Shown here in pieces: positions 1,658 to 16,983 of a DNA stretch of 16,983 nucleotides. Numbering within the stretch: position 1 is the first letter of the stretch; every line of letters starts with the position of its first letter. The position numbers and the translations under genes were made by a program. The notes below the pieces were generated by a model. That model was not told the origin of the DNA, did not search any database, and worked only from the letters and a program-made list of their open reading frames with translations. The DNA comes from an uncultured Oscillospiraceae bacterium (GTDB lineage: Bacteria > Bacillota > Clostridia > UBA1212 > SIG427): assembly GCA_902465325.1 (NCBI GenBank), contig CABQMV010000029.1:1-16983 (forward strand). Direction: 5' to 3'.

Positions 1658-1666
1658 TGGTATACT
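1658..1666 (+). promoter_or_regulatory. Extended -10 element (TGgTATACT) for the nfeD-floT operon. A ribosome-binding site AAAGGAG lies at 1682-1688.
   Basis: TG at 1658-1659 and TATACT at 1661-1666 sit about 35 nt upstream of the ATG at 1701. The site lies in the divergent intergenic region, and the RBS is 12 nt before the start. Confidence 0.4.
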
Positions 1667-1700
1667 TTGAATAACTTACAGAAAGGAGCTATACCGTTAT

Positions 1701-2402: not shown

Positions 2403-2404
2403 AG

Positions 2405-3727
2405 ATGGAAACAGAGACCCTTTTCATGATTGGTGCTATTATTATTGTTGTATTTGGATTTTTGATTTTTATATTCGGACGGTACAGAAAATGTCCCTCG
2501 GATAAAGTAATGGTTATCTACGGAAAGGTGGGGAACAACAAGGACGGGACCTCTAAATCGGCGAAATGCATTCATGGCGGAGCGTCCTTTATCTGGCCGG
2601 TCATCCAGTCCTATCAATATCTTGACCTGACCCCCATTGCGATTAATGTACCTTTGAAAAATGCCCTTTGCCGGCAGAATATCAGAATTGATGTTCCCTC
2701 CAGCTTTACAGTAGGGATTTCCACAGAGCCGGGAATTATGCAAAATGCTGCAGAGCGCCTTTTGGGAATGAAGCTGGCAGAGGTCCAGGAGCTGGCGAAG
2801 GATATTATATTTGGTCAGCTGCGGCTGATTAATGTAAATGTAACAGATATTACAGATGAGTCCGGCTATATAGAGGCCTTGGGAAAAGAGGCTGCTGCCC
2901 GGGCCATTAACGATGCAAAAAAGAGTGTGGCCGAAAAAAACAGAGACGGATCTATCGGTGAAGCAAATGCCATACGGGATCAGCGTGTGGCGGTGGCTTC
3001 TGCGGATGCGGCTGCCATTGAAGGAGAAAACGAAATACAGATCCAGGTGGCGAATTCTGCGGCTACGCGCCGGGAAAAGGAAGCCGAGGCTCTGTGCCGG
3101 GCCACTGCTGCCGAGAAGGTACAGTCTGCCAATGCCCTGAAGGAGGCCTATGCGGCGGAGCAGGAGGCAGAGGTCGTGCGTGCCCAGAAGGAGAAGGCTA
3201 CTTTAGAGGCAAACGAGCTGGTAAAAGCAGAGGTTGAGAAAAGAAGAGTTGAGCTGGCGGCTGAGGCTGAGGCTGAGCAGATCAGGAGAAAAGCCAAAGG
3301 TGAAGCCGATGCGATTTTTATGAAAATGGAGGCGGAGGCCCGGGGTATGCAGGAAATCCTGCAAAAGCAGGCGGAGGGTTTTGCCGATGTTGTACAGGCA
3401 GCCGGAGGAAAGGCGGACGATGCGGTGAAGCTGATTCTGGCAGATAAGATGGAGGATCTCATCCGCATCCAGGTAGAGGCCGTCAAGAACCTGAAAATTG
3501 ATAAGGTAACGGTATGGGACAGTATGAGTGGAAAAGACGGAAGCTCCACTACCTCTAATTTTTTATCGGGCCTGATGAAATCTGTGCCTCCTATGCAGGA
3601 AATGTTTGACATGGCGGGAATGGATTTGCCCTCATTTCTTGGGAAGAAGAAAGAATCTGCCCCTGTCATAGAAGCGGAGGAAGCGGCTGTACAGCCTGAT
3701 GAAGCCGGCGGGCAGACATCGTTATAA
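2405..3727 (+). CDS. floT: Flotillin-like SPFH/Band-7 protein (FloT/YuaG-like).
   Basis: N-terminal membrane hairpin FMIGAIIIVVFGFLIFIFG. SPFH core ...VMVIYGKVGN...ASFIWPVIQSYQYLDLTPIAINVPL.... A long C-terminal Glu/Ala-rich coiled-coil repeat region (EAEQIRRKAKGEADAIFMKMEAEARG...) is typical of flotillins. It is paired with an upstream nfeD. Confidence 0.85.
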   Translation: METETLFMIGAIIIVVFGFLIFIFGRYRKCPSDKVMVIYGKVGNNKDGTSKSAKCIHGGASFIWPVIQSYQYLDLTPIAINVPLKNALCRQNIRIDVPSSFTVGISTEPGIMQNAAERLLGMKLAEVQELAKDIIFGQLRLINVNVTDITDESGYIEALGKEAAARAINDAKKSVAEKNRDGSIGEANAIRDQRVAVASADAAAIEGENEIQIQVANSAATRREKEAEALCRATAAEKVQSANALKEAYAAEQEAEVVRAQKEKATLEANELVKAEVEKRRVELAAEAEAEQIRRKAKGEADAIFMKMEAEARGMQEILQKQAEGFADVVQAAGGKADDAVKLILADKMEDLIRIQVEAVKNLKIDKVTVWDSMSGKDGSSTTSNFLSGLMKSVPPMQEMFDMAGMDLPSFLGKKKESAPVIEAEEAAVQPDEAGGQTSL

Positions 3728-3741
3728 TATTTGTTTTATAA

Positions 3742-3781
3742 AGCCGCCCGGTATGTGCAATACAGACCGGGCGGCTTTTTG
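3742..3781 (+). terminator. Rho-independent terminator after floT.
   Basis: A perfect 11-bp stem AGCCGCCCGGT (3742-3752) pairs with ACCGGGCGGCT (3766-3776) around a 13-nt loop. A T5 tract at 3776-3780 follows directly. Confidence 0.75.
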
Positions 3782-3815
3782 ATAACTTCCTGTTTTCCGT
3801 CCGCTTTTTTCTGCA

Positions 3816-3845
3816 TTGACTGACCTTTCCGTCTTATGATAAAAT
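3816..3845 (+). promoter_or_regulatory. SigmaA-type promoter for the symporter gene: -35 TTGACT, 18-nt spacer, extended -10 TGaTAAAAT.
   Basis: TTGACT at 3816-3821, TG at 3837-3838 and TAAAAT at 3840-3845. RBS GGAGAG at 3871-3876, just before the ATG at 3880. Confidence 0.45.
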
Positions 3846-3879
3846 TTATACATCTTTTATTGCTGAATAAGGAGAGTAT

Positions 3880-5328
3880 ATGGCTGCTTTTTTTGAGGAA
3901 TTGGGAAAAACAATTGCCGTTGTAAATGAAAAGGTATATGACGTAGTAGGCGGAATTCCACTGGTTCTCCTCCTGTTTTTAGTAGGGATTTTTATGACAG
4001 CAGGTACCGGCTTTTTTCAGGTCAGACATTTTGGATATACCATGAAGAAGACGATTTTTGCTGTATTTCATGACAGAAGGGTTACAAAGACAGAGGATCA
4101 TAAGGCCATTTCACAGTTTCAGGCGCTGTCTACGGCTTTAGCGGCCACAGTAGGCTCGGGGAATATTGTGGGAGTGGCCACTGCCATTGCCTCCGGAGGT
4201 CCCGGCGCAGTATTTTGGATGTGGCTGTCTGCTTTCTTTGGTATGATGACCAATTTTTCAGAAAATGTACTGGGAATCTATTTTCGCCATAAAAATGAAA
4301 AAGGAGAATGGGTGGGCGGTCCCATGCACTACTTGGAGAAGGGCGTCCATGTCAAATGGCTGGGAATCATTTTTTCAGTTTTTTGTCTTTTGGCCTCCTT
4401 TGGCATAGGCAATCTGGTGCAGGTGAACAATATATCCAGTTCTCTTAAGAACAGCTTCCAGATTCCTCAGCTTATAACCGGTGTTGCCGTTGCGCTGTTT
4501 GTCGGTTTTATTATATTGGGCGGGTTAAAAAGGATTGCTGCCGTTACGGAGAAGCTGGTGCCGTTTATGGCTATTGTGTACATAGCCGGGGCGCTGCTGG
4601 TTGTATTGTTTCATCTTCCGGAGGTCCCGTTGGCCTTTCGGGAAATTTTTATGCAGGCTTTCAGCTTCCGGTCTGCCGGCGGCGGAATTATGGGGTATAT
4701 GATTGCCCGAGCTATCCGTTTTGGCGTAGCCAGAGGCGTTTTTTCCAATGAGGCGGGGCTGGGCTCATCTGTAATGGTACATGCCTCCTCTGATGTGAAG
4801 GAGCCTGTGATCCAGGGCATCTGGGGGATTTTTGAGGTGTTTTTTGATACCATTGTGATCTGTACGCTGACGGCGCTGGCAATTTTAACTACCGGAGTAC
4901 ATGAGGCGGGTATTTATCAGGCAAATAACTATACTGCCGCTGCATTCACCACGGTATTTGGCTCTGCCGGCGGTTATATTGTTTCCTTTTGTATTTTGCT
5001 GTTTGCTCTTTCCACCATACTGGGCTGGTCCGTCTACGGCAGCAGGGCAGTAGAATATCTGTGGGGAAGCAAAGGGGTCATTTTCTATAAAGTTGTTTTT
5101 GTGCTTTTGCTTGTTCTGGGGGCTGTACAGCAAATGGATCTGCTCTGGGCGCTGGCAGATACCTTTAACAGCCTTATGGCCATTCCCAATCTGATAGGCG
5201 TTTTGCTTCTCTCCGGGACGGTATTTCAAATAACCAAAAATTATTGTAATAGAACGTTTAAAGGCTTGAAGGTCAGTCCTATGTTATCTTATGGGGATAA
5301 AACGATGAAAGGAAAGGTGAGTAAGTAA
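3880..5328 (+). CDS. Alanine/glycine:cation (sodium) symporter, AGCS family.
   Basis: A polytopic membrane protein of 482 aa whose layout and motifs are characteristic of AGCS transporters, including ...QFQALSTALAATVGSGNIVGVATAIASGGPGAVFWMW... and ...GVFSNEAGLGSSVMVHASSDVKEPVIQG.... Good RBS. Confidence 0.85.
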   Translation: MAAFFEELGKTIAVVNEKVYDVVGGIPLVLLLFLVGIFMTAGTGFFQVRHFGYTMKKTIFAVFHDRRVTKTEDHKAISQFQALSTALAATVGSGNIVGVATAIASGGPGAVFWMWLSAFFGMMTNFSENVLGIYFRHKNEKGEWVGGPMHYLEKGVHVKWLGIIFSVFCLLASFGIGNLVQVNNISSSLKNSFQIPQLITGVAVALFVGFIILGGLKRIAAVTEKLVPFMAIVYIAGALLVVLFHLPEVPLAFREIFMQAFSFRSAGGGIMGYMIARAIRFGVARGVFSNEAGLGSSVMVHASSDVKEPVIQGIWGIFEVFFDTIVICTLTALAILTTGVHEAGIYQANNYTAAAFTTVFGSAGGYIVSFCILLFALSTILGWSVYGSRAVEYLWGSKGVIFYKVVFVLLLVLGAVQQMDLLWALADTFNSLMAIPNLIGVLLLSGTVFQITKNYCNRTFKGLKVSPMLSYGDKTMKGKVSK

Positions 5329-5329
5329 A

Positions 5330-7600
5330 ATGCGCGGTATTGTTATGAAAAAGCATGGCATTTTTGGGATTTTTCTTATCTGCTTTGTTATATTAGCAAG
5401 CACTTCGGTATTACAGGCAAAAGTGGAAAGGCTGGAGTTCCAGTACGAAAGCGGGTACAGCTGGGAGGGGGAGTATATCTACGGAGCTTATCCCAATGAG
5501 ACTGTGCAGTATCTGTTTGAGATGGCTCAGGATACTTCTGTTATCCGGGTGCGGAATGCAGCAGGAAATTTTATCAGCGGCAATGCAAAGCTCTATACAG
5601 GGATTAAGGTGCAGCTGTATGCGTACAATACAGTATGGGATGAGTCGTCTCTGGTAATGCTGGGAGATATCAACGGAGACGGAAAAATAAATTCAGCAGA
5701 CTATATTCGGCTGAAGCGGTATTTTTCCGGTACAGAGCTTGCCGGTGCCTATTATGAGGCGGCGGATCTGAATGGAGACGACAGACTGATGTCTGCAGAT
5801 TATATTAAACTGAAGTCCTACTTCGGCGGAAAACTGGAACTGTTTCCCCAGAAAGGCGGCGAGGCTCCTGAGCCTACTCCGGTACAGAAGTATACAGGTC
5901 CCTATTCCGAGTATAATGGCGCCTATGGAGGTGTAGATGATTTAGGACGGGAGCAGTACTATGAGACACAGGTATCGACAGGCAGTCGGGAAAAGGATGT
6001 GGGGATTTTTTATTTCCTCTGGCAGGGGCAGCACGGTACCTCAGGTCCCTACGATAATAATAAGATTGTGGCTTCCCATCCGGAGGCCCTTCTTTCGGAG
6101 GCTAACTGGAAGGCAGCCGGCGGCGGGAACCGGGGCGCCCATCATTTCTGGGGCGAGCCTTTATTTGGCTACTATACGATGAACGACACCTGGGTTATGC
6201 GGAAGCACGTGCAGATGCTGACGGCAGCGGGAGTTGACTATCTGGTATTCGATACAACCAATGGATATACTTATGATGCCCAGGCGCTTAAGCTTTTGTC
6301 TGTATTAGACGAGTATTCTCAGCAGGGCTGGGATGTGCCCCAGATCGCTTATATGACCCATTCAAATTCCTGGGAGACCATGCAGCAGATCTATGAAAAT
6401 ATCTATGCCGCTCATCCGGAATATTCCCATCTTTGGTATCTGTATAACGGGAAGCCTATGATCATAGGCTCTAATCCTACAGAGGAGGTTAGAAACTTTT
6501 TTACCGTCAAGACGGATCAGTGGCCCAATGCCTCCAAAGCGCCTAACGGATTTCCGTGGATGGAATTCAGCCGGTGGCTGACAGCGGATTCTGTATACGG
6601 CCTTCAGGGGAAGAAGGAGATTATGAATGTGTCTCTGGCCCAGCACAACGCTACGGTTCAGTTCAGCAATACAGCTTGGTACGGGGGGAATGACCGCTCC
6701 AGGAATTATACAGGAACCTTTATAAAAGGCCTGACTTCGGAACAGGCACTGCTTCAGGGTACGAACTTTGCCATTGGCTTTGACTATGCTCTGTACCAGG
6801 ATCCTGAAAATATCTTTATTACAGGCTGGAATGAATGGGTGGCACAAAGACAGGCCTCTGACAGCAATGCCATTGTATTTGTAGACTGTGCAGATCCCAA
6901 TAACAGCCGGGATGCCGAGCCTATGAACGGGGTTTTAAAGGACAACTACTATATGCAGATGACCAATCTGATTAAAGAGTTTAAGAATGCCGCTCCTAGA
7001 GTGGATGTGGGAGAGAATACGACTATTGATATAAATGGAAGTTTTGCTCAATGGGATTCTGCTACAGCCAACTATACGGATTTTACCGGAGATACTGTGG
7101 ACAGAAATGAAAAAGGCTTTGGCAATATCCTGTATACGGATACCAGCGGAAGAAACGATTTTTCTCTCATGAAGGTGGCAAAGGATGCGGATACGGTATA
7201 CTTTTATGTAAAGACTGTGTCAGACATTGTCGGAGAGGGAAGCGGACAGTGGATGAATCTGTTTATACGCAGCGGTACTTCCGGCAGCGCCTCCTGGGAG
7301 GGCTTTGACTATGTGATTAACCGCACTGCGCCGGTGGACGGCAAAATGACGGTAGAAAAGAACCTGGGCGGCTGGAGCTGGGAGAAAGCAGGGACGGTAT
7401 CCTACAAGCAGGAAGGGAACCAACTGATGCTGGCAGTGCCTAAGGCTATGCTGGGAATTGCCTCTGATGACCTGATCGACCTGCAGTTTAAATGGGCGGA
7501 TAACTGCGGAGACAGTGGGGATGTGATGACCTTCTATACCAAGGGAGATGCAGCTCCTTACGGAAGGTTTACTTATATTTACAGTGAAAAGGTAAAATAG
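5330..7600 (+). CDS. Secreted protein with a signal peptide, an N-terminal type-I dockerin, a TIM-barrel glycoside-hydrolase-like domain (tentatively GH71/GH99/GH114-like) and a C-terminal beta-sandwich.
   Basis: Signal peptide MKKHGIFGIFLICFVILASTSVLQA. Dockerin duplicated Ca-binding segments GDINGDGKINSADYIRLKRYF and ADLNGDDRLMSADYIKLKSYF (about 5663-5833). Catalytic-domain-like motifs IFYFLWQG...HHFWGEPLFGYYTMNDTWVMRKHVQMLTAAGVDYLVFDTTNG...FITGWNEWVAQ. The C-terminal part, ...DFSLMKVAKDADTVYFYVKT...WEGFDYVINR..., looks like a beta-sandwich. I cannot assign the GH family by eye. Confidence 0.6.
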   Translation: MRGIVMKKHGIFGIFLICFVILASTSVLQAKVERLEFQYESGYSWEGEYIYGAYPNETVQYLFEMAQDTSVIRVRNAAGNFISGNAKLYTGIKVQLYAYNTVWDESSLVMLGDINGDGKINSADYIRLKRYFSGTELAGAYYEAADLNGDDRLMSADYIKLKSYFGGKLELFPQKGGEAPEPTPVQKYTGPYSEYNGAYGGVDDLGREQYYETQVSTGSREKDVGIFYFLWQGQHGTSGPYDNNKIVASHPEALLSEANWKAAGGGNRGAHHFWGEPLFGYYTMNDTWVMRKHVQMLTAAGVDYLVFDTTNGYTYDAQALKLLSVLDEYSQQGWDVPQIAYMTHSNSWETMQQIYENIYAAHPEYSHLWYLYNGKPMIIGSNPTEEVRNFFTVKTDQWPNASKAPNGFPWMEFSRWLTADSVYGLQGKKEIMNVSLAQHNATVQFSNTAWYGGNDRSRNYTGTFIKGLTSEQALLQGTNFAIGFDYALYQDPENIFITGWNEWVAQRQASDSNAIVFVDCADPNNSRDAEPMNGVLKDNYYMQMTNLIKEFKNAAPRVDVGENTTIDINGSFAQWDSATANYTDFTGDTVDRNEKGFGNILYTDTSGRNDFSLMKVAKDADTVYFYVKTVSDIVGEGSGQWMNLFIRSGTSGSASWEGFDYVINRTAPVDGKMTVEKNLGGWSWEKAGTVSYKQEGNQLMLAVPKAMLGIASDDLIDLQFKWADNCGDSGDVMTFYTKGDAAPYGRFTYIYSEKVK
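5663..5833 (+). other. Dockerin type I module (two EF-hand-like repeats) inside the CDS 5330..7600.
   Basis: GDINGDGKINSADYIRLKRYFSG...AADLNGDDRLMSADYIKLKSYFGGK matches the dockerin duplicated D-x-N-x-D-G loop plus helix pattern. Confidence 0.7.
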
Positions 7601-7618
7601 TCGGGAGAAAAAACAGCT

Positions 7619-8128
7619 ATGATATTACTGGCGATAGAAGGGCCTTGCTGCAGCGGCAAAACTACCTTTGCCGGCCAACTGGCAGAGAAGTATGACTGCA
7701 ATGTGTTTCATATGGACGATTTTTTTCTGAGGCCTTTTCAGCGTACAGAAGCACGCTTCAATATGCCGGGCGGCAATATTGACTGGGAAAGATTTTCTGA
7801 GGAGGTGCTGGTTCCCTTAAAGGAGAACCGGCCCTTCTCCTTTCGTCCCTTTTGCTGCTGTACAATGGAACTTGGTGAAAAAATTGATGTAATGCCCAAG
7901 GAGATTAATGCTATAGAGGGCTCCTATTCTATGCATCCCTGTCTCAGAAGCTTTTATACGGACAGTGTTTTTCTGACTGTATCGCCGGAGGAACAGCTGC
8001 GCAGACTGAAGGAAAGAGAGACGCCTGAAAGCTTTCAGCGCTTTTTAACAAAATGGCTGCCCATGGAGCAGCGGTACTTTGAGGCCTTTAAGCCCTGGAC
8101 CTTTTGCGGCCATGTCTTTTCCGTCTGA
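7619..8128 (+). CDS. Small P-loop NTPase, uridine-kinase/nucleoside-kinase-like.
   Basis: Walker A motif LLAIEGPCCSGKTTFAGQLA at the N-terminus. 169 aa. RBS GGGAGA at 7604-7609. Its 3' end overlaps the convergent yihY-like gene by 41 nt. Confidence 0.55.
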   Translation: MILLAIEGPCCSGKTTFAGQLAEKYDCNVFHMDDFFLRPFQRTEARFNMPGGNIDWERFSEEVLVPLKENRPFSFRPFCCCTMELGEKIDVMPKEINAIEGSYSMHPCLRSFYTDSVFLTVSPEEQLRRLKERETPESFQRFLTKWLPMEQRYFEAFKPWTFCGHVFSV

Positions 8129-9005
8129 ATTTATCCCAGAATTTATTTTCGTTAATTAAGCAGTTTATTTCGCCTCCAATGAACAGCATATACATACAGA
8201 TGTAAAGCCACAGCATCAGCAGTACAATGGTGGTAAGGCTACCGTAGAGGTTGGAATAGTTGGCGATATTGTCTACATAAAAGGCGTACAGATACGAAAA
8301 GCCGATCCAGCCTACTGCAGTCAGCAGCGCTCCCGGCAGCTCCTTAAAGAAATTGCCCCGGCGGTCCGGCATCATTACATACATCAAATCAAAGAAAAGT
8401 GCCAGCAGCGCCAGTCCTGTGACGCCGCGAAGGTCCATGATGATCGCTGCAATTTCTGCCAATACCGGGGTGCTGGAGGCAAGCCATTTGTAAAGCGTGT
8501 TTCCGAATACCATGATAATCAGCATCACTAATAGAATTAATAAAAAGGCCAGTGTTTCTATAACAGAATAAAACCGTATAATAATGTAGCTTCTGGACTC
8601 TGTGTTTTCATATACGGAATTCATTCCTCTGCGTATTGCCAGCAATCCTTTGGAAGCAGACCATAATGCAGTAATGGCAGTAATAGATATAACTGTACCG
8701 GAGGCATTAATATGGATTTCTGCCAAAAGCTCGTTGACAAATTTTGTGACGGCTTCCGGCAATATACCTGTGACAAGAGCGCCGGTTTCATCAAGAGGAA
8801 TCGGAATGTAATTTAAAAGTGTCAGCAGCAGCATTACAAAAGGAAAAAACGAAATGATAATAAAGAATGCACTCTGAGCTGCATAAGCAGTAACCGCATG
8901 CCGCGACAGCCGTTCCAAAAAATCCGATACCGGATTGATAAACGGCCTTAACCTGACTATTTTCCTTTTGGTTTTCATACTCAGATTTGGCTGCAGCTTT
9001 TTCAT
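8088..9005 (-). CDS. YihY/BrkB-family integral membrane protein. The start is probably the internal ATG at 9005 rather than the ORF-track start at 9086.
   Basis: A six-helix hydrophobic protein with the conserved YihY N-terminus ...RLSRHAVTAYAAQSAFFIIISFFPFVMLLL... and the core FIGGEIN.... An AGGAGA RBS (9013-9018) lies 7 nt upstream of the ATG at 9005. The ATG at 9086 has only a 4-nt spaced SD and lies upstream of the putative promoter. Confidence 0.7.
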   Translation of the reverse strand: MKKLQPNLSMKTKRKIVRLRPFINPVSDFLERLSRHAVTAYAAQSAFFIIISFFPFVMLLLTLLNYIPIPLDETGALVTGILPEAVTKFVNELLAEIHINASGTVISITAITALWSASKGLLAIRRGMNSVYENTESRSYIIIRFYSVIETLAFLLILLVMLIIMVFGNTLYKWLASSTPVLAEIAAIIMDLRGVTGLALLALFFDLMYVMMPDRRGNFFKELPGALLTAVGWIGFSYLYAFYVDNIANYSNLYGSLTTIVLLMLWLYICMYMLFIGGEINCLINENKFWDKFRRKRHGRKRSRA

Positions 9006-9027
9006 TCTTTTATCTCCTGTAGATATT

Positions 9028-9056
9028 ATATTAATATAACAGACAAAATTATTCAA
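9028..9056 (-). promoter_or_regulatory. Putative promoter for the yihY-like gene (TTGAAT-17-TAATAT on the minus strand).
   Basis: Reverse complement of 9051-9056 is TTGAAT and of 9028-9033 is TAATAT (17-nt spacer), with an overlapping TATAAT at 9025-9030. Weak call made by eye. Confidence 0.3.
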
Positions 9057-9106
9057 GTGTTCTCCTTGCTGCTTTGTTCTTTTCAATATAGACTCCTGCC
9101 TGCGGT

Positions 9107-9134
9107 TTGCAAAAATTTTCCGGCGGCGTATAAT
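9107..9134 (+). promoter_or_regulatory. Putative sigmaA promoter for the ABC exporter: TTGCAA, 16-nt spacer, TATAAT.
   Basis: TATAAT at 9129-9134 and TTGCAA at 9107-9112. RBS TGGAGGG at 9149-9156 before the ATG at 9161. Confidence 0.4.
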
Positions 9135-9160
9135 GAATAGTTGTATTTTGGAGGGATCGT

Positions 9161-10897
9161 ATGAAGTCTTTTAAAAAATTTGCACATTATTATAAACCGT
9201 ATATTGGACTCATTCTTTTAGATTTGCTGTGTGCTGGCATATCCGCAGGCTGTGAGCTGGTATTGCCTTTGATTGTAAGGCATATTACGGGAGATGCGCT
9301 GGCGGGAGAGGCCGGTCATATAATCGGATCGGTGGTGCGGCTGGGACTGTTGTACCTGGCGCTGCGCATGGTTGATGTGGGTGCTAATTACTATATGTCC
9401 TATATTGGACATACTACCGGCGTAAGGCTGGAGACTGACATGCGCCGAGATCTGTTTGCCCATCTTGCAGAGCTTCCGTTTTCTTTTTATGACAATACAA
9501 AGGTGGGACAGATCATGTCCCGGGTAACCAACGACCTATTTGATATTACAGAATTTTCCCACCACTGTCCGGAGGAATTCTTTATTGCAGGGCTGAAAAT
9601 CATTGGTTCCTTTATTATTTTAATGACTGTTAATATACCGCTGACCCTAATTATTTTTGCGCTGCTGCCTTTGATGCTGGTTTCCGTGCTGCTTTTCAGG
9701 AAGAAAATGAGAGCAGCCTTTAAAAAATCCAGAGTACAGACTGGCGAACTGAATTCTGATTTGGAAGATTGCCTTTTGGGGATTCGCGTAGTGAAGAGCT
9801 TTGCCAATGAAGAGGTGGAGAAAGAAAAATTTGGAAGGGGAAACAACAAATTTCTGGAGATTAAGAAAGAGGCGTACAAATATATGGCCGGCTTTAATGC
9901 GGGCACAAGATTCTTTGAGGGGGTTATGTATGTGGCGGTTATTGTAATCGGCGCGGTTTTTATGCAACGCCAGCAAATCACTGCAGCAGACCTGATTGCT
10001 TATCTGCTCTATATTCAGAGCCTGTTAACCTCAATTCGGAGAATTGTGGAATTTACAGAGCAGTTTCAAAAGGGGATTACCGGCATTGAACGGTTCCAGG
10101 AGCTTATGGATGTACCGGTTTCTATCGCTGACCTGCCCGGCGCAGTGCCGTTGACCGGTGTACGCGGAGAAATCGAATTCAGGGATGTGACTTTTTCTTA
10201 TGGAGAGGGAGGCCCTGTTCTGGCGCACTTTGATTTGAAAGTGGCCAGCGGTGAAAATGTGGCGCTGGTAGGTCCCTCTGGAGCGGGAAAGACTACGGTA
10301 TGCAATTTGATTCCCCGCTTCTATCAGCCAGATGCGGGAACGATTACTTTAGACGGACATGATATCAGCCGGGTAACGCTGGATTCCCTCCGAAGGAATA
10401 TTGGTATGGTACAGCAGGAGGTTTATCTTTTCAGCGGCAGTGTGGCAGATAACATTGCCTATGGAAATCTTTCTGCCCAAAGAGAGAAAATTGAAGCGGC
10501 TGCAAAGGCCGCCGGCGCTCACTCTTTTATCTGTCAGCTGGAAAACGGCTACGATACCTATGTAGGGGAAAGAGGCGTGAAACTTTCTGGAGGACAGAAG
10601 CAGAGAATCTCCATTGCAAGATTGTTTCTGAAAAATCCGCCGGTGGTTATTTTAGATGAGGCTACTTCTGCATTGGATAATGAGAGTGAGCGGCTTGTGC
10701 AGAAATCTCTGGAGCGGCTGGCCCAGGGCAGGACTACCATTACCATAGCGCATCGGCTAAGTACAATAAAAAATGCCGACCGCATAGTTGTACTGTGCGA
10801 GGACGGCATAAGGGAGCAGGGAACACACCAGGAGCTGCTGCGCTCCGGCGGAGAGTACGCTAAGCTCTATGGTCAAACTCTTGATCCGTTATTATAA
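9161..10897 (+). CDS. ABC transporter fused permease/ATP-binding protein (MsbA/type-I exporter-like).
   Basis: N-terminal six-helix transmembrane domain. Walker A GPSGAGKTT, ABC signature LSGGQKQRISIARL, Walker B VVILDEATSALD, H-loop IAHRLST. Confidence 0.9.
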   Translation: MKSFKKFAHYYKPYIGLILLDLLCAGISAGCELVLPLIVRHITGDALAGEAGHIIGSVVRLGLLYLALRMVDVGANYYMSYIGHTTGVRLETDMRRDLFAHLAELPFSFYDNTKVGQIMSRVTNDLFDITEFSHHCPEEFFIAGLKIIGSFIILMTVNIPLTLIIFALLPLMLVSVLLFRKKMRAAFKKSRVQTGELNSDLEDCLLGIRVVKSFANEEVEKEKFGRGNNKFLEIKKEAYKYMAGFNAGTRFFEGVMYVAVIVIGAVFMQRQQITAADLIAYLLYIQSLLTSIRRIVEFTEQFQKGITGIERFQELMDVPVSIADLPGAVPLTGVRGEIEFRDVTFSYGEGGPVLAHFDLKVASGENVALVGPSGAGKTTVCNLIPRFYQPDAGTITLDGHDISRVTLDSLRRNIGMVQQEVYLFSGSVADNIAYGNLSAQREKIEAAAKAAGAHSFICQLENGYDTYVGERGVKLSGGQKQRISIARLFLKNPPVVILDEATSALDNESERLVQKSLERLAQGRTTITIAHRLSTIKNADRIVVLCEDGIREQGTHQELLRSGGEYAKLYGQTLDPLL

Positions 10898-11471
10898 GAT
10901 CTTCCGCGACGGCTTTCACATACTTTGATACTCGGCTGATGGTCCAGATATCGGATATTCCCACAAGCATCAGACAGATTCCCACCAGGCGGGCGATGTC
11001 CAGGGTGGCTTCAAAGGGATCGGCAATAACCAGCACGCCCAGCCCAATCGTCATAAAAGAAAGAAGAAGTGCAATCCACTACAGTGGATAGTGATTTCTG
11101 TGAAGCTCCAGTGCCTTTTGAAATTTTACAAAGCTGTCGATCACAATAATCAGTCCCATAACAAAGCCTATGCTTTCTGCTACGATGCTGTATTTTACAA
11201 TAAAAAAGATCCCGATTCCTGCGGCGATCAGGCCGTTGATCATGCCGAATCCGTAGAAGCTGCCGTCTCCGTGGTCAGCAAAGTTCCCTATTACAATAAT
11301 CAATCCGTAAATCAGCAGCAGGCCGCCAAAGGCATAGCAGACCAGCCTTCCCATCGTTTCGGGCCATATGGTCAGGCAGATGCCCACAATTACATAAAAT
11401 ATGGCGGTCAAAATGTAGCTCTTCTTTAGCTTTGTCAGAAAATTTTTCATATCGTATACACCTCCGGGCAC
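10860..11471 (-). pseudogene. HdeD/DUF308-like six-helix membrane protein interrupted by a single in-frame amber codon (TAG at 11079-11081, minus strand). The two ORF-track pieces, 11079..11471 and 10860..11054, are in the same frame.
   Basis: Both pieces are in frame 2 mod 3. The reading is ...LELHRNHYPL-TAG-WIALLLSFMTIGLGVLVIADPFEATLDIARLVGICLMLVGISDIW.... Hydrophobic helices with the G-x-x-x-I-x-x-G periodicity of DUF308 continue across the stop. The combined length of about 204 aa fits the family. RBS GGAGGTG before the ATG at 11471. Confidence 0.6.
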
Positions 11472-11617
11472 GGTTTAAAGGAAACCTGCAACTATTATTT
11501 TACTGTAGTATACCATAAACGGCATAAAATATCTTCAGAAATTTATTCTGGCGGGTTCATTAAAGGTGAGAGTTCCTGTTTGCAGCAGGAGGTATTCCTA
11601 TGTTGGACATAGAGCCG

Positions 11618-11646
11618 TTGACAAGAATATTGTAAAAAAGTATAAT
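11618..11646 (+). promoter_or_regulatory. Consensus sigmaA promoter (TTGACA-17-TATAAT) for the dockerin-hydrolase, cohesin and PAP2 operon.
   Basis: TTGACA at 11618-11623, an exact 17-nt spacer, TATAAT at 11641-11646. The ATG at 11709 has the RBS GAAGGG 9 nt upstream. Confidence 0.6.
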
Positions 11647-11708
11647 AAAAAAGTATTACATAGGAAGAAGCTCCGTTTTTTTGTTTATAAGGAAAGAAGG
11701 GACGCGAA

Positions 11709-13703
11709 ATGCAGCATTTTACCAAGAAAAAGATCTTGATTACCGCAGTGCTGGCGGTTGTTATGATAAGTCTCACAGTAGCGGGAGTGATCAGTCTGGC
11801 TGCTGTTCAAACCGGCATGGTTAATATTGTAGATGACACGCTGAATGTCAGAACGGGTCCCGGAAAATCTTATCAGGTTATTGATGTACTGGATACGGGA
11901 GATATTATTACAATTACCGATTCTCAAAAGGACACAGATGGCAATGTCTGGTATAAAATGTCTATTTCTAAAAACGGCAAGACGATAACCGGTTTTGTAC
12001 ACTCTTATTACATCACTCTGCTGCCGGATTCCTCTGCCGATACGGCTTTTGAGCAGGAGATGGTAAAGCAGGGCTTCCCCGACAGCTATAAGCCGTATTT
12101 GAGACTTCTGCACAAGCAGTACCCAAACTGGAAGTTTGTATCTTTGCAGACGGGCTTGGATTTTAATACGGTTATTACGAATGAAAGCAAGCTGGGCGAC
12201 AATTTGGTGCCGAATTATGCCAGTACTAAATCCTCCTGGAAATCTATGCAGGACGGTGCTTTTAACTGGGAGAAGAACGACTGGGTGGTGCTCAGCGGTT
12301 CTTATTCCGTACAGGCTTCTTCTGAGATTATACGGTATTTTATGGATCCCAGGAATTTTTTGAATGCCGAGGATATTTTTCAGTTTGAATTGCTTACGTA
12401 TTCCTCCTCTCAGACAGTAGAAGGGGTAAATGCGATTATAAAAGACACTTTCATGTACAACAATACAGTGCAGTCCGGTATGACTTATGCCCAGGCCTTT
12501 ATGCAGATAGGAAAGGAATTGAACGTAAGTCCGTATTTTCTGGCAAACCGGGTGAGACAGGAGCAGGGGGTTAACGGTACATCTCCTCTTATCTCCGGCA
12601 CAGTATCCGGGTATGAGGGGTACTATAATTATTTCAATATCAGTGCCAGCGGCTCGAATCAGAATTTAGTAATAGAAAACGGTTTGAAGAAAGCCAAAAG
12701 CGAAGGCTGGAATACGCGGTACAAAGCTCTGAAGGGCGGTGCGGAGGTCGTAGCGGCCAATTACATATTAAAAGGACAGGATACGCTGTATTTGCAGAAG
12801 TTTGATGTGGAGTCCAAATATAACGGCCTGTATTGGCACCAGTATATGCAGACACTGCAGGCGCCCTATGATGAAGGACATACTGCCAGAAGGGCTTACA
12901 ACAGCATGGGACTTCTGAGCAGCTCCTTTACTTTCAAAATTCCTGTGTACAATAATATGCCTTCCGCCGCCTGCGCAAAGCCTACAAAGGACGGCAATCC
13001 AAACTATAAGCTTTCTTCTATCAGTGTAAGCGGCTACAGCCTCACGCCCACATTTAGCGCAGACGTTTCCAGCTATAGCCTGATTGTGCCGTATTCGGTA
13101 AGTTCTGTTACTGTAAGCGCGAAACCCTATGCTGCCACTACTACGGTTTCCGGCACAGGCAGCAGGGCTCTGAATGTAGGCTCAAATACGGTTGTGATAA
13201 CGGCTACTGCACAAAACGGCGACCAGAAGACGTACACGCTGCTGATTACAAGAGAAAATGCGCCGGCAGGAGAAACCTCTGTACATTCTGACGTGCTGAA
13301 ATTTAACGGACAGACGGTATATGGTTTTTCACCGGGAATTACCGCTGAAAATGCGCTGAAGCTTATGAAGGTTACCAACGGAACAGGCGCCTTCTGCAAT
13401 AAGTCCGGGGAAAAGAAGAGCGGAACCCTGGTGACCGGAGATATTCTGAGAATATTTGACAACGCCGGAAAGGTTGTTAAAAATGAATATTCTGTTATAA
13501 TATTTGGTGATGTAAGCGGTGACGGAGCCATTGATGCTTTGGATTTGGTTTACATGAAGAGACATTTGTGGGATGTTTCCAAACTGTCTGGGGTATACAA
13601 ACTGGCCGCCGATGTGTCCCATACCGGCGGAGATGTACTGCCTCTGGATCTGGTATATCTTAAGAGACACGTCTGGAATATAAGCGAGATCGTACAGCAA
13701 TAA
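11709..13703 (+). CDS. Secreted or anchored cell-wall hydrolase: N-terminal signal or anchor, SH3b domain, glucosaminidase (GH73)-like catalytic region, cadherin-like beta-sandwich and C-terminal type-I dockerin.
   Basis: N-terminal hydrophobic ILITAVLAVVMISLTVAGVISLAA. SH3b-like NIVDDTLNVRTGPGKSYQVIDVLDTGDIITIT...NVWYKMS (about 11817-12014). FPDSYKPYLRLLHKQYPNWKF...YAQAFMQIGKELNVSPYFLANRVRQEQG...YNYFNI resembles glucosaminidase-family autolysins. Cadherin-like segment SSISVSGYSLTPTFSADVSSYSLIVPYSV...TYTLLITR (about 13005-13252). Dockerin GDVSGDGAIDALDLVYMKRHLW...ADVSHTGGDVLPLDLVYLKRHVWN (13506-13679). Confidence 0.75.
   Translation: MQHFTKKKILITAVLAVVMISLTVAGVISLAAVQTGMVNIVDDTLNVRTGPGKSYQVIDVLDTGDIITITDSQKDTDGNVWYKMSISKNGKTITGFVHSYYITLLPDSSADTAFEQEMVKQGFPDSYKPYLRLLHKQYPNWKFVSLQTGLDFNTVITNESKLGDNLVPNYASTKSSWKSMQDGAFNWEKNDWVVLSGSYSVQASSEIIRYFMDPRNFLNAEDIFQFELLTYSSSQTVEGVNAIIKDTFMYNNTVQSGMTYAQAFMQIGKELNVSPYFLANRVRQEQGVNGTSPLISGTVSGYEGYYNYFNISASGSNQNLVIENGLKKAKSEGWNTRYKALKGGAEVVAANYILKGQDTLYLQKFDVESKYNGLYWHQYMQTLQAPYDEGHTARRAYNSMGLLSSSFTFKIPVYNNMPSAACAKPTKDGNPNYKLSSISVSGYSLTPTFSADVSSYSLIVPYSVSSVTVSAKPYAATTTVSGTGSRALNVGSNTVVITATAQNGDQKTYTLLITRENAPAGETSVHSDVLKFNGQTVYGFSPGITAENALKLMKVTNGTGAFCNKSGEKKSGTLVTGDILRIFDNAGKVVKNEYSVIIFGDVSGDGAIDALDLVYMKRHLWDVSKLSGVYKLAADVSHTGGDVLPLDLVYLKRHVWNISEIVQQ
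13506..13679 (+). other. C-terminal dockerin type I module of the cell-wall hydrolase.
   Basis: Two Ca-binding loop plus helix repeats, GDVSGDGAIDALDLVYMKRHL and ADVSHTGGDVLPLDLVYLKRHV. Confidence 0.7.
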
Positions 13704-13720
13704 AGGGGATTTAGCATACA

Positions 13721-15745
13721 ATGAAGACTTTAAAAAGCAAATTACTGATTCTGTTGGCGTTCACGGTCATGGCCGTGTCTGTTTTGGGCGTTCCGATCCA
13801 GGCTGCCTCGGGAACCATGAGTATAACGGTGAGCAATGCGAATGTAAATGCAGGGGATAATTTCACGGTAACGGTCAGCTATACCGGCAGTACGGTTCTG
13901 GCCTATGCCAACTGGACGCTAAAGTACGATGACTCTCTGGTGTCCTGCGGCGGATACGGAGGGTCTATCCCGGACCGTTTTGATCCGGACCAGAGTGCCA
14001 ATGCCAAATCTTTTTCTCAGACCTATACCTTTACTGCGAAGGCAGTGGGGACGGTATCTTTCAGTATAGCGGATGAAGGCGTCTACAATTTGTATCCGGA
14101 AGACGGGGATTTGGTTACGCTTAATAAGAGTGGTGCCTCTGTTAAAATTTCCGCCAAGGGATCCAGCAATGCCAATTTGTCCAGCCTGAAGCTGTCGGCG
14201 GGCAGCCTGTCTCCTTCCTTTTCCAATGATGTATCCAGCTACACAGTTACTGTACCTAACAGTGTGGCTTCTATTTCTATAAGTGCTGTTGCGGCGGATT
14301 CCAAGGCGAGAGTGTCTGTCTCCGGAGCCAATGAGGTCCCTGTAGGAGACAGCAGCCGGGTGGTGATTGTGACTGCTGAGGATGGCACCGTCAAGAAGTT
14401 TACAATACATATTAACCGGGCGGCCAGTGTACCGCTGACGCCTATTGCCACGGCAACCCCGGTCACAACGCCTATGGCGACCTCCGGTACGCTGCCGGTC
14501 CCTACGACGGATCCCAGTAATCTCCCGGGAGAGCTGGAGGTGACAGCCAGCGGTGCGGTTCTTACGATTGTAGATAAGCCTGATACGGTAACGCTGCCAG
14601 TAGGCTTTACGGAAATCCAGTATACCTATAAAAGCAGGCAGGTGTGGGCTGCTCAGGCTGAGAATCAGGAGCTTATTATCCTGTATCTCCAGGATGAGGC
14701 CAATGAAAAGAGCGGCTTTTATGTATATGATGAAGTCAACGATGAGTTTTCAAAGTATATTATTCTGTACACGAGAAACAGCAGCTATACGCTGTTGCAG
14801 CTCCCGGAGATCGTTGCGGTTCCTGAGGGATATGTTGAAAAAATTGCCGTATTGGACGGTGAAAATGTCACGGTATGGGTTCCCGAGTCCATGAAATATA
14901 TGGAGGCGGAAATCTGTGAGTTCTATCTTGTGTACGCGATGAATCAGAATGGGGATAAAGGCTTTTATGTGTATGATACAGTAGAGCAGACCTTTCAGCG
15001 GTTCAGCAGTGATATAGGACTTCCTGTTTCTTCCCCTGTGCCTGATGATCCGGAGGCAACACCGGCACCGGATGTGGTAAATCCCGATGGAGATCCGGTG
15101 GAAACAGGTCTTTGGGATAGCTGTAAGGCATTTTTCTCCAGGATATTTTCAGGGGAAGCCAGAGCGGTGGATTGGCTTTTGTTTAGTCTGCTGTTGTTTA
15201 TGGTTTTATTAATTGTAGTATTGATTCTGTTTATTGTATATGCGGTTCAGAAGCACAGAGAGGAAGCGGTGGATGAGGACTTCCCTCTGGCAAAGAAAGA
15301 AGAGGGAAACCGGAATTTCCGCAAGACGAATTTATTTGAAATAGAGGAAGTTCCTATAGAAACGGAAGAACCGGAGAAGCCGGAGCCGGCAGAGGCACTG
15401 CCCGAGGCTGAGACGGATTCTTCAGAGGAGCAGGAAGTACCGGAAGAGCCGCCCGAGGAGATTGAAACACAGGAGAGCGCAGAGGCAGAAAGTACATACG
15501 GCGAAGCAGTGCCCTGGGAGGATACGCCGGCAGAGCCTCAGGATACGGAAGCTTTGCAGCAGGATCTGCAGGCTGAGCCGGAGCCAGAGACTGAGAATGA
15601 GGCTGAAGCGGAAGAGAATACAGAGGCGGAGAAAGAAACAGATCCCTTTGATTTTAATATTGAGGATTTAAAGAAAGCAGAGGAAAAACCTTGGGGTTTT
15701 GACGATGAAATAGGAGACGACTTCTTTAATGAAGATCAGAGTTAA
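13721..15745 (+). CDS. Membrane-anchored cohesin-domain protein (scaffoldin/anchor-like). Signal peptide, cohesin, cadherin-like domain, Pro/Thr linker, two tandem modules of about 82 aa, a transmembrane helix, and a long acidic Glu/Pro-rich cytoplasmic tail.
   Basis: Signal peptide MKTLKSKLLILLAFTVMAVSVLGVPIQA. Cohesin-like MSITVSNANVNAGDNFTVTVSYTG...ANWTLKYDDSLVS...TYTFTAKAVGTVSFSI (about 13808-14161). Cadherin-like SSLKLSAGSLSPSFSNDVSSYTVTVPNSV...KFTIHINR (about 14167-14419). Pro/Thr linker. Repeated ...GFYVYDEVNDEFSKY / ...GFYVYDTVEQTFQRF modules. Transmembrane helix WLLFSLLLFMVLLIVVLILFIVYAV (about 15170-15245). About 170 aa of Glu/Asp/Pro-rich tail ending ...PWGFDDEIGDDFFNEDQS. Confidence 0.75.
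   Translation: MKTLKSKLLILLAFTVMAVSVLGVPIQAASGTMSITVSNANVNAGDNFTVTVSYTGSTVLAYANWTLKYDDSLVSCGGYGGSIPDRFDPDQSANAKSFSQTYTFTAKAVGTVSFSIADEGVYNLYPEDGDLVTLNKSGASVKISAKGSSNANLSSLKLSAGSLSPSFSNDVSSYTVTVPNSVASISISAVAADSKARVSVSGANEVPVGDSSRVVIVTAEDGTVKKFTIHINRAASVPLTPIATATPVTTPMATSGTLPVPTTDPSNLPGELEVTASGAVLTIVDKPDTVTLPVGFTEIQYTYKSRQVWAAQAENQELIILYLQDEANEKSGFYVYDEVNDEFSKYIILYTRNSSYTLLQLPEIVAVPEGYVEKIAVLDGENVTVWVPESMKYMEAEICEFYLVYAMNQNGDKGFYVYDTVEQTFQRFSSDIGLPVSSPVPDDPEATPAPDVVNPDGDPVETGLWDSCKAFFSRIFSGEARAVDWLLFSLLLFMVLLIVVLILFIVYAVQKHREEAVDEDFPLAKKEEGNRNFRKTNLFEIEEVPIETEEPEKPEPAEALPEAETDSSEEQEVPEEPPEEIETQESAEAESTYGEAVPWEDTPAEPQDTEALQQDLQAEPEPETENEAEAEENTEAEKETDPFDFNIEDLKKAEEKPWGFDDEIGDDFFNEDQS
13808..14161 (+). 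other. Cohesin domain.
   Basis: Pattern I-x-V-x-x-x-x-A-x-x-G-D-x-x-x-V-x-V-x-x-x-G then x-x-Y-D-x-x-L, comparable by eye to type-I cohesins of CipA-like scaffoldins. Confidence 0.6.
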
Positions 15746-16397
15746 AGAGAACCTTCATGCAGTCTGGCTGCTCTTTTGGCCTCTGCAGATTATATGGTAT
15801 GCAATACTGGAATCCAATGCCCGTGAAATGCCTCGCTTTTTCACGGTGCATTCTTTTATAGACGATTGGATTCCTTTTATTCCTTGGTTTGTGATTTTCT
15901 ATCTTTTGTGGTATGTCTATATTGCCGTGGGAATGTTGTATTTTACATTTGTAGAAAAAGAGGGCTTTCGCAGGCTGATTGTTTTTCTTTATACAGAGAT
16001 TTTTCTGTGCCTTTTGTTTTGTACTATGTTTCCTAACGGCCATGATATGAGGCCGGTTCTGGCAGGACGCACGGATCTTTTCAGTAATTTGGTGAAGCTG
16101 ATTTACGATGCAGATCCGCACTGTGTTACGGTTATGCCCAGTATGCATGTAATGAATGCGGTTGCCATAACGGCTGCGGTTACAAAGAGCAAGCGCTTGT
16201 CCCATAAAAAGGGGCTTGTCTGGGGCTGCTGGATTTTTACTTTTCTGGTAGCTCTGTCTACTGTTTTTATTAAGCAGCATTCTATACTGGATGTGGCTGT
16301 TGCTGCAGTTGTGTGTGTTCTGATGTATCTGCTGGCATACAGGACAGAATTTCCATTTTTTGATAAGAATAAGAGAATAGAAAGAGTAACACAATAA
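15729..16397 (+). CDS. PAP2-superfamily integral membrane phosphatase-like protein. It overlaps the 3' end of the cohesin gene by 17 nt.
   Basis: A multi-helix membrane protein carrying PAP2-like motifs (PNGHDMRP, PSMHVMNA, KQHSILDVAVA with the H-x-x-x-D spacing). Its mirror ORF on the minus strand (15726..16394) is low-complexity and I reject it. Confidence 0.65.
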   Translation: MKIRVKENLHAVWLLFWPLQIIWYAILESNAREMPRFFTVHSFIDDWIPFIPWFVIFYLLWYVYIAVGMLYFTFVEKEGFRRLIVFLYTEIFLCLLFCTMFPNGHDMRPVLAGRTDLFSNLVKLIYDADPHCVTVMPSMHVMNAVAITAAVTKSKRLSHKKGLVWGCWIFTFLVALSTVFIKQHSILDVAVAAVVCVLMYLLAYRTEFPFFDKNKRIERVTQ

Positions 16398-16436
16398 TAC
16401 CGATGTTTATATATTAAAACAAAGGTTGTGTTGCGG

Positions 16437-16983
16437 ATGAAAGCTGTTATTATGGCAGGAGGGTGTTCGGCTCAGACCGCTTACTTGCACCTTGCCAAAA
16501 CCGATGGTGCCTATAGGAGAGAAGCCTGTTATTGTTCATATTATTAATTTGCTGAAGGCACACGGGATTACCCAAATTGCAATTACGCTGAAATACTTAC
16601 CGGGATCTGTCAGAAATTATTTAGGCGACGGAAAAGAGCTGGGGGTACAGCTGGAATATTTTACTGAAGATAAGCCAATGGGAACCGCAGGCAGTGTGGC
16701 AGGCTGCCGCAGCTTTTTGTCTCCGCAGGAGGATTTTATTGTTATGAGCGGGGACAGCATGACAGATGTGGATTTAACGGAGGCAATCAGGTTCCATCGT
16801 CAGCATGGCTCTATGGCGACGCTTGTACTCACGCATTCTGATCATCCTATGGATTACGGTGTGGCTTTGACGGATCAGCATGGGCTGATTAAAGGCTTTT
16901 TGGAGAAGCCGGATTGCCGGCATCTGATGGGGGATTTGGTTAATACGGGAATTTATATACTAAACCCTTCTGTTATGAAATTT
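16437..16983 (+). CDS. Sugar-1-phosphate nucleotidyltransferase (mannose-1-phosphate guanylyltransferase-like), truncated at the window end. The N-terminal frame is disrupted near codon 10.
   Basis: ATG at 16437 gives MKAVIMAGG, the canonical N-terminus, but then runs into a stop (CSAQTAY...YY*). The +1 frame from about 16459 gives GVRLRPLTCTLPKPMVPIGEKPVIVHIINLLKAHGITQIAITL...KPMGTAGSV...VMSGD..., the G-x-G-T-R-L-R-P-L-T pyrophosphorylase fold. That implies an indel in the GGAGGGTGTT run. Confidence 0.6.

Follow-up and report, generated by a model that had tools for sequence, protein, structure and literature searches.

Which role can be played by a membrane-anchored cohesin that is encoded directly downstream of a dockerin-bearing peptidoglycan hydrolase? 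This question is raised by a DNA stretch of 16,983 nucleotides (nt) from an uncultured Oscillospiraceae bacterium (assembly GCA_902465325.1, contig CABQMV010000029.1, positions 1 to 16,983 of the forward strand), which was analysed as a whole and is named the window below. Two of its open reading frames (ORFs) are in the focus of this study: ORF1, which encodes the hydrolase, and ORF2, which encodes the cohesin-bearing protein. An initial annotation of the same DNA had interpreted them as a non-cellulosomal pair linking a peptidoglycan hydrolase to a membrane-anchored protein. This central interpretation is supported by our results, as the modules are real and the two genes are strictly adjacent in other genomes. 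The pair is widespread and essentially uncharacterised; its parts are known, and it has been glimpsed before. With moderate confidence, we propose that ORF1 and ORF2 constitute a two-gene non-cellulosomal cohesin-dockerin unit, which tethers an autolysin to a membrane stalk and serves the metabolism of the cell's own wall. The elements of the unit are (aa, amino acids):

11618..11646, plus strand: sigma-70-type promoter, TTGACA-17 nt-TATAAT, matching the consensus at 12 of 12 positions, 62 nt 5' of the ORF1 start codon
11709..13703, plus strand: ORF1, 664 aa, predicted dockerin-bearing peptidoglycan N-acetylglucosaminidase of the type of glycoside hydrolase family 73 (GH73), according to Pfam, NCBIfam and PDB matches
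13721..15745, plus strand: ORF2, 674 aa, predicted type I membrane protein with a cohesin at the N-terminus

Conservation of the gene pair

Eighty loci from species-representative genomes were retrieved with an alignment of the hydrolase family alone, and every ORF of these loci was scanned with purpose-built hidden Markov models (HMMs) for four domains. Because the loci were found through the hydrolase, the adjacency test is independent of ORF2. Only hydrolases with 400 nt or more of sequence 3' of the gene were counted. Of these, the ones carrying a strong dockerin were followed on the same strand by a gene for a cohesin plus the membrane-proximal domain of ORF2 (FYVYD, see below) in 53 out of 53 cases, without exception. 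The co-location in related genomes, to which the initial annotation had pointed as a check of its proposal, is thus evident. Hydrolases lacking a dockerin match were followed by a cohesin and FYVYD gene in 8 cases and not in 7; for a paralogue class of about 600 aa with a weak dockerin-like C-terminus, the corresponding numbers are 1 and 7. One of the 8 comes from the draft genome of a cultured strain, Roseburia inulinivorans DSM 16841 (L042:4572-6929). Within dockerin loop 1, its hydrolase goes out of frame after ...GDINGDGK, due either to a fault in the assembly or to the dockerin having become a pseudogene.

The two genes of a pair are mostly separated by 10-70 nt or overlap; in the window, the intergenic gap is 17 nt. 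Pair-bearing Lachnospiraceae comprise Agathobacter, Roseburia including R. inulinivorans DSM 16841, Lachnospira intestinalis and Faecalimonas, and the pair is also found in Oscillospiraceae, Acutalibacteraceae, Anaerovoracaceae and others. ORF2 homologues with an identity of just 27-33% are still encoded directly 3' of a gene with SH3, GH73, cadherin-like and dockerin domains, in different neighbourhoods. From locus to locus, the pair is flanked by different, unrelated genes: purine genes and ClpB were found in L004, CNNM and an aldose epimerase in L003, and plsY, gpsA and spoIVA in L007, while transporters and kinases are the neighbours in the window. A single cohesin was detected per locus and in the window, L076 with its weak second one being the exception. 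The hydrolase family is large: more than 7500 of 8000 scored candidates belong to it at E ≤ 0.001, and a single cluster at 90% identity contains 12,641 sequences.

Two variations of the arrangement were noticed. Locus L076 contains, 2.3 kb upstream of its main pair, a second one (L076:95-2637). Its first protein, of 449 aa, has a dockerin at the C-terminus; the overlapping gene encodes a protein of 398 aa, whose N-terminus is weakly cohesin-like and which also has a weak match to the cadherin-like domain. A dockerin gene followed by a cohesin gene may be a recurring arrangement. Tandem hydrolase paralogues 5' of a single cohesin gene occur at L002:3921-9875 as well as in L039 and L064; both hydrolases of L002 possess a dockerin, one of which is more canonical.

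The hydrolase and its dockerin

The translation of ORF1 can be divided into the following parts, all on the plus strand:

11709..11807, plus strand: signal peptide or signal anchor, aa 1-33, read from the translation (KKK, then a hydrophobic stretch of about 25 aa)
11835..12014, plus strand: SH3b domain (SH3_3), aa 43-102, Pfam 45.6 bits
12039..12995, plus strand: GH73-like glucosaminidase catalytic domain, aa 111-429, matches to PDB entries with the single sequence and with a profile
13011..13256, plus strand: cadherin-like beta-sandwich, aa 435-516, Pfam 43.8 bits
13281..13493, plus strand: X-module, about 70 aa directly N-terminal to the dockerin, conserved among homologues
13494..13697, plus strand: dockerin, aa 596-663; Pfam Dockerin_1 (PF00404) at aa 600-654, 28.5 bits, cut-off 22.9

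Three of the four domains which the initial annotation had assigned to the hydrolase (SH3b, cadherin-like and dockerin) were confirmed by Pfam at the scores listed. The fourth one, a glucosaminidase-like domain, was recovered by other means: PF01832 (Glucosaminidase) gave no match even at E ≤ 0.1, leaving the central ~320 residues empty in Pfam, but structural matches and a partial NCBIfam match to SagB (2.6e-13, the best one in NCBIfam) identify the domain as GH73-like. With the single sequence, the PDB search found Staphylococcus aureus Atl (1e-8), Clostridium perfringens Acp (5e-8), and SagB and AtlE (1e-7). A family profile built from 16 homologues improved these values to 1e-20 for SagB (6fxp/6u0o), 5e-20 for AtlE (4pi7), 3e-18 for Atl (6fxo) and 6e-16 for Acp (5wqw). 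Glu285 (12561-12563, motif RQEQG) aligns with the glutamate of LLETG in 6fxo and is invariant in the 16 diverse homologues; we take it to be the catalytic residue, as in the GH73 family. Due to the structural match at 1e-20 and this invariant glutamate, the enzyme is probably active and would cut the beta-1,4 bonds between N-acetylglucosamine and N-acetylmuramic acid (GlcNAc-beta-1,4-MurNAc). By analogy to its family, the SH3b domain is assumed to bind the wall. Homologues of ORF1 possess typical signal peptides.

The dockerin was matched to PDB dockerins both with the single sequence and with the family profile, down to 5e-15 (e. g. 8x39), and its first Ca2+ loop, DVSGDGAIDALD, is canonical. 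The two helices IDALDLVYMKRHLW and VLPLDLVYLKRHVW are near-duplicates of each other. This holds for the family: among 60 members, the identity of the helices is 74% within a protein, compared with 36% between proteins of different species. Such a duplicated pattern is also displayed by cellulosomal dockerins that fit a particular cohesin. Judged by this internal two-fold symmetry of the recognition helices, the module appears to behave like a functional dockerin. The name X-module for the preceding stretch is given by analogy only; a similar stretch (29% identity over 141 aa) precedes the dockerin of a further protein encoded in the window at 5330-7600, which is described below.

The cohesin-bearing membrane protein

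For ORF2, the following features were derived:

13721..13804, plus strand: signal peptide, aa 1-28 (...PIQA/AS), read from the translation and conserved in the family alignment
13805..14170, plus strand: cohesin, aa 29-150, from a domain HMM, a PDB profile search and the predicted fold
14177..14419, plus strand: cadherin-like beta-sandwich, aa 153-233, Pfam 45.1 bits
14420..14527, plus strand: Pro/Thr-rich linker, aa 234-269, read from the translation, of variable length in the family alignment
14528..15010, plus strand: FYVYD domain, aa 270-430, about 160 aa, all-beta, membrane-proximal, with two GFYVYD-type motifs
15173..15247, plus strand: single transmembrane helix, aa 485-509, WLLFSLLLFMVLLIVVLILFIVYAV, followed by QKHREE, at the hydropathy maximum
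15248..15742, plus strand: acidic tail, presumably cytoplasmic, about 165 aa with 61 Asp plus Glu and 12 Lys plus Arg, ending ...WGFDDEIGDDFFNEDQS

The N-terminal cohesin proposed by the initial annotation is the least obvious of these domains. When the full-length protein is scored with Pfam Cohesin (PF00963), the result of 18.7 bits is below the cut-off of 24.1, and among the ORF2 homologues listed, only about one third have a precomputed Cohesin match. The isolated domain, however, reaches 25.3 bits, and 18 of 18 aligned family members match Cohesin (best 1.6e-11); both modules of the pair, the dockerin and the isolated cohesin, exceed their Pfam cut-offs. The family profile found cellulosomal cohesins and the cohesin of C. 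perfringens NagJ in the PDB (best 1.8e-7). An AlphaFold2 model of aa 28-153 is all-beta and has a predicted local distance difference test (pLDDT) value of 92.6. In a Foldseek comparison of this model with the PDB, the top 11 matches were all cohesins, with E values between 4e-7 and 2.5e-6 and template modelling (TM) scores of 0.66-0.76. The prediction thus confirms that the N-terminal domain has a cohesin fold, i. e. a flattened beta-sandwich of the jelly-roll type, which is short: with about 120 aa, it falls ~20-40 residues below the length of the matched cohesins.

While the cohesin and the helix had been recognised before, the cadherin-like domain and the FYVYD domain had been overlooked. 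For the latter, neither a Pfam family nor a solved structural relative was found. It is represented by 3080 proteins at 50% identity; considering the top-ranked representatives with at least 100 aa N-terminal to the domain, a cohesin precedes it in 129 out of 133, and 120 of those have the C-terminal helix, too. This architecture of the partner (cohesin, FYVYD domain, C-terminal helix) is fixed.

A second linker connects the FYVYD domain with the helix. The signal peptide and the charged residues behind the helix, both read from the sequence, imply a type I topology, in which the cohesin would be the outermost part of a stalk outside the cell. That a C-terminal helix replaces the usual SLH or sortase anchor, as initially annotated, is fully in line with the family: each of the 65 members found in the loci has one helix after the ectodomain, and 64 of them contain no LPXTG-type sortase motif, the remaining match being a loose one due to chance. 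As ORF2 itself has no such motif, sortase anchoring was ruled out; Pfam detected no SLH domain in ORF2, and neither Pfam nor NCBIfam indicated a recognisable enzymatic or signalling domain. The tail ends in a C-terminal motif that is conserved in close relatives. Tails of the Lachnospiraceae type (L008-L015, L054, L063, L070, L074) terminate in LEFIDL, IEFLDL, LEIIDFNDL or FEFEFINLED, and that of the window in DDEIGDDFFNEDQS; this shared motif could be a docking site for a cytoplasmic partner. In many homologues from Oscillospiraceae and Acutalibacteraceae, just 8-30 basic residues follow the helix.

Proposed mechanism and related systems

In the mechanism we propose, ORF1 would be exported and would cut the glycan strands of peptidoglycan as a GH73-type N-acetylglucosaminidase. 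ORF2 would form a stalk, in which, beginning at the membrane, the helix is followed by the juxtamembrane linker, the FYVYD domain, the Pro/Thr-rich linker, the cadherin-like domain and, at the distal end, the cohesin. It is to this cohesin that ORF1 would bind with its C-terminal dockerin, presumably in a Ca2+-dependent manner. An otherwise diffusible hydrolase would be kept on the producer cell in this way, with the stalk defining how far from the membrane it sits, and cutting would be limited to the cell's own wall, being neither random nor lost to the medium. From what is known of other GH73 autolysins, the separation of daughter cells or the trimming and turnover of glycan strands would be a likely role.

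Several known systems resemble the pair. Cell-bound cohesins that capture secreted dockerin enzymes are likewise found in the anchoring scaffoldins of cellulosomes (SdbA, OlpB and Orf2p of Clostridium thermocellum with SLH domains, ScaE of Ruminococcus flavefaciens with a sortase signal) and in the amylosome scaffoldins of Ruminococcus bromii, and the best structural matches of the ORF2 cohesin are cellulosomal ones. There are, however, clear differences: instead of a multi-enzyme scaffold, one cohesin has apparently one main client, which is encoded beside it; the anchor is a membrane helix and not an SLH domain or sortase signal; the client cuts peptidoglycan and not plant polysaccharide or starch; and the cohesin is short and stays below the Pfam cut-off in the full-length protein. 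A cellulosome or amylosome was ruled out, as ORF2 contains one cohesin, nearly all loci, like the window, revealed no further one, and SLH and sortase signals are missing. Cohesin-dockerin interactions outside plant-fibre degradation are also represented by the NagJ/NagH toxin complexes of C. perfringens and by the cohesin 2xdh of Archaeoglobus fulgidus; the NagJ and A. fulgidus cohesins are among the sequence or fold matches of the ORF2 domain. Non-cellulosomal cohesin-dockerin systems have reportedly been surveyed by Peer and colleagues in 2009. To our knowledge, these cases link secreted glycosidases or toxins, or have clients of unknown nature, and in none of them does a conserved operon combine a peptidoglycan hydrolase with a membrane-anchored cohesin.

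With respect to function, the pair follows the same logic as SpdC-SagB and ActH-LytH of S. aureus and as FtsEX with PcsB, CwlO or RipC, where a membrane partner keeps a wall hydrolase in place or controls it, so that cutting occurs at the correct site. SagB is, in addition, the best NCBIfam match and the best profile match in the PDB for the catalytic domain of ORF1. The partners SpdC, ActH and FtsEX are polytopic or of the ATP-binding cassette (ABC) type and make contact via membrane helices or coiled coils; ORF2, by contrast, is single-pass, and its presumed contact is a cohesin-dockerin interface far from the membrane. As ORF2 also lacks a polytopic CAAX-protease-like domain, a complex of the SpdC-SagB type was ruled out, and the resemblance is functional only.

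The claim that such a pairing is not a standard annotated system has to be modified: it is not annotated as such, but a published remark predates it. Ze et al. (2015), citing Wegmann et al. [quoted passage not shown] As far as this statement goes, it very probably refers to the same gene pair, since in this non-cellulolytic gut species of the Clostridia the only dockerin and the only cohesin go with GH73. It is a genomic remark of one sentence, in which no statement was found on membrane anchoring, the other domains of the partner, conservation across the family or function. Furthermore, Table 3 of Dassa et al. (2014) has a GH73 entry in the dockerin column for each of three Ruminococcus albus strains (PMC4081043). 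A functional, structural or comparative study of the pair was not found in the full-text literature searched.

Alternative explanations

A number of observations weigh against a tether that depends on dockerin and cohesin. The second Ca2+ loop of the ORF1 dockerin, DVSHTGGDVLPLD, carries an insertion of one residue, a pattern shared by many homologues. The N-terminal hydrophobic stretch of ORF1 is long (~25 aa) and, as read from the translation, could be an uncleaved anchor, which would make the tethering partly redundant. In seven loci (L063, L069, L070, L071, L073, L074, L085), a hydrolase without dockerin is accompanied by a cohesin-bearing partner; consequently, the association is not always dockerin-dependent, and the two proteins may meet through other domains, both having a cadherin-like one. 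Six of these hydrolases (L069-L071, L073, L074, L085) possess several N-terminal SH3 domains and end right after the cadherin-like domain, whereas the hydrolase of L063, lacking the several SH3 domains, is short and possibly truncated; the partners in L071 and L085 are short and have no FYVYD domain. In L006, an ORF2 homologue occurs without an adjacent hydrolase. Finally, the co-evolution signal, determined from the distance matrices of 52 pairs by partial Mantel tests, is weak and not specific to the presumed interface: the correlation between dockerin and cohesin is r = 0.21 when controlling for GH73 and FYVYD (permutation p ~5e-4), and that between dockerin and FYVYD is 0.19 when controlling for GH73.

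Locus L036 bears on several readings at once. Its hydrolase (L036:1988-7022) has four repeats of the peptidoglycan-binding type in place of X-module and dockerin, and its partner begins directly with the linker and the FYVYD domain, without cohesin and cadherin-like domain; the gene pair and the PAP2 gene downstream of it were kept. Dockerin and cohesin have apparently been lost together. This joint loss speaks against the notion that the two are not mutual partners, i. e. that the cohesin takes other dockerin proteins such as the one encoded at 5330-7600 and that the dockerin of ORF1 binds another cohesin or a wall polymer, while the process served would be the same. We regard this notion as unlikely, since it is also at odds with the 53/53 adjacency across families of Clostridia, with the single cohesin detected in the window and per locus (apart from the weak second one in L076), and with R. 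bicirculans, for which the sentence in PMC4611034 reports one dockerin and one cohesin, both tied to a GH73 enzyme. It draws on the second dockerin protein 4 kb upstream, which is conserved in close relatives, on the cohesin-bearing partners that adjoin dockerin-less hydrolases, and on the unspecific co-evolution signal. On the other hand, the fact that the pair was kept in L036 without dockerin and cohesin, and in the seven loci without dockerin, suggests a relationship beyond docking. It would suit ORF2 being a transmembrane regulator which activates, inhibits or times the hydrolase, with the tail relaying a cytoplasmic cue and the cohesin-dockerin contact serving as coupling device, comparable to FtsEX-PcsB/CwlO, SpdC-SagB or ActH-LytH. 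This model, which we consider possible though not probable, is in agreement with the long (165 aa) acidic tail and its end motif, which has been conserved among relatives (DDFFN in the window, and in many Lachnospiraceae LEFIDL, IEFLDL or FEFEFINLED), with the large conserved and otherwise uncharacterised FYVYD ectodomain between membrane and cohesin, and with the presence of SagB among the closest solved enzymes; SagB works in complex with a membrane protein. However, such a tail is not found family-wide, as many homologues of Oscillospiraceae and Acutalibacteraceae end in 8-30 basic residues; signalling through the tail is thus not a general mechanism. Moreover, ORF2 has no recognisable enzymatic or signalling domain.

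Two further explanations differ from tethering for own-wall metabolism in the target of the enzyme or the time of its action. If displayed at the distal tip of a long stalk, the enzyme could reach past the cell's own wall, and the SH3b domain could bind foreign walls; ORF1 might then be an antibacterial muralytic enzyme or a scavenger of foreign gut peptidoglycan. We judge this to be quite improbable, as the pair is chromosomal, near-universal and embedded in varied housekeeping contexts without a conserved immunity-type gene beside it, as the closest characterised relatives are autolysins, and as the pair is not carried by annotated phages. Good matches to the pair on the phage side are few and are all unannotated virome fragments of 4-14 kb. 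A prophage endolysin was ruled out as well, because annotated phages carry neither gene, apart from a GH73 domain of 30% identity in tail hydrolases of Staphylococcus phages, and because the genes around the pair in the window encode transporters and kinases. A role restricted to sporulation or germination, i. e. engulfment or cortex remodelling, is brought to mind by spoIVA next to the pair in L007 and by the host families, which include many spore formers. It is highly improbable in view of the perfect vegetative sigma-70 consensus of the promoter, of the other neighbours, which are unrelated to sporulation, and of the searches in Pfam, NCBIfam and PDB, which gave no similarity to known sporulation hydrolases.

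Implications

If tethering of the autolysin is correct, a connector best known from plant-fibre degradation is a routine leash for a wall hydrolase in these bacteria. The scale is considerable, with at least 53 species-representative genomes carrying the pair and about 3000 clusters of the FYVYD domain at 50% identity. The pair would make cell separation and wall turnover accessible to tests in organisms which are hard to study, and short, naturally orthogonal cohesin-dockerin pairs from many species would become available as parts for protein assembly. It would also help to explain why some genomes were reported as containing a few dockerins while lacking cohesins; such reports may be accounted for in part, because this cohesin scores below the Pfam cut-off in the full-length protein. 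In addition, it would bear on the origin of the cellulosomal modules: given its wide distribution among non-cellulolytic lineages, the pair is possibly ancestral to the cohesin-dockerin systems of cellulosomes and amylosomes. This last thought belongs to a more far-reaching and rather doubtful idea, according to which the pair would be an ancient housekeeping device in Clostridia of the gut and a new class of autolysin control. ORF2 proteins would then act as rulers that span the wall and position and possibly switch the glucosaminidase; the FYVYD domain would be a sensor for the wall or the synthesis machinery, the acidic motif of Lachnospiraceae would couple to a cytoplasmic partner, for example of the divisome, and the use in cellulosomes and amylosomes might derive from this ancestral one.

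Second dockerin protein and genomic neighbourhood

The remaining features of the window which were considered are:

5330..7600, plus strand: second dockerin protein, 756 aa, with signal peptide, X-module, dockerin and a GH99-like domain of about 590 aa
5660..5824, plus strand: canonical dockerin of this protein, aa 111-165, Pfam 43.3 bits
15729..16397, plus strand: ORF3, PAP2-family phosphatase, Pfam PAP2, 34 bits

The second dockerin protein, encoded ~4 kb upstream of the pair and conserved in close relatives, had been noted initially as GH-like; its dockerin was readily detected, and the GH-like part turned out to be GH99-like. The similarity of the ~590-aa domain to GH99 endo-alpha-mannosidases is remote (profile 1.2e-6). 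With an identity of ~50%, the domain is highly conserved among hundreds of Clostridia proteins annotated as "hypothetical", most of which have no dockerin. Certain relatives of 970 aa add a dockerin and PF08481 repeats. The recognition helices of the dockerin, INSADYIRLKRYF and LMSADYIKLKSYF, differ from those of ORF1; it is possible that this protein is a second client of the ORF2 cohesin.

Metagenome contigs match the window at 100% protein identity, and the closest named homologues of ORF1 come from metagenome-assembled genomes of Oscillospiraceae ("Ruminococcaceae bacterium"). The consensus promoter of the initial annotation was verified at 11618-11646, and being a perfect sigma-70-type sequence, it argues for vegetative expression. 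The layout is tight, and the start of ORF3 overlaps the end of ORF2 by 17 nt. No convincing terminator was seen between ORF3 and the next gene, a nucleoside triphosphate (NTP) transferase starting at 16438, so that the transcript may be longer than the three genes initially annotated. The PAP2 assignment of ORF3 was correct, but the gene extends beyond position 15745, where the three-gene module had been taken to end, and it lies outside the conserved unit. A PAP2 gene is located 3' of the pair only in L001, L002 and L036, plus the contigs L088-L090 of the same strain. It is therefore a lineage-specific neighbour of close relatives and one other lineage, and was ruled out as a general third component.

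Two ORFs located 5' of the SPFH/Band 7 gene, 704-1261 (185 aa) and 1701-2402 (233 aa), have no Pfam match. A gene for a DUF308 membrane protein (10860-11471, minus strand) is split by a TAG codon at 11079-11081, so that two fragments, of 130 and 64 aa, take the place of a 196-aa protein. Contig L089, which represents an otherwise identical strain, has TGG at this position; the difference is a nonsense polymorphism of a single base.

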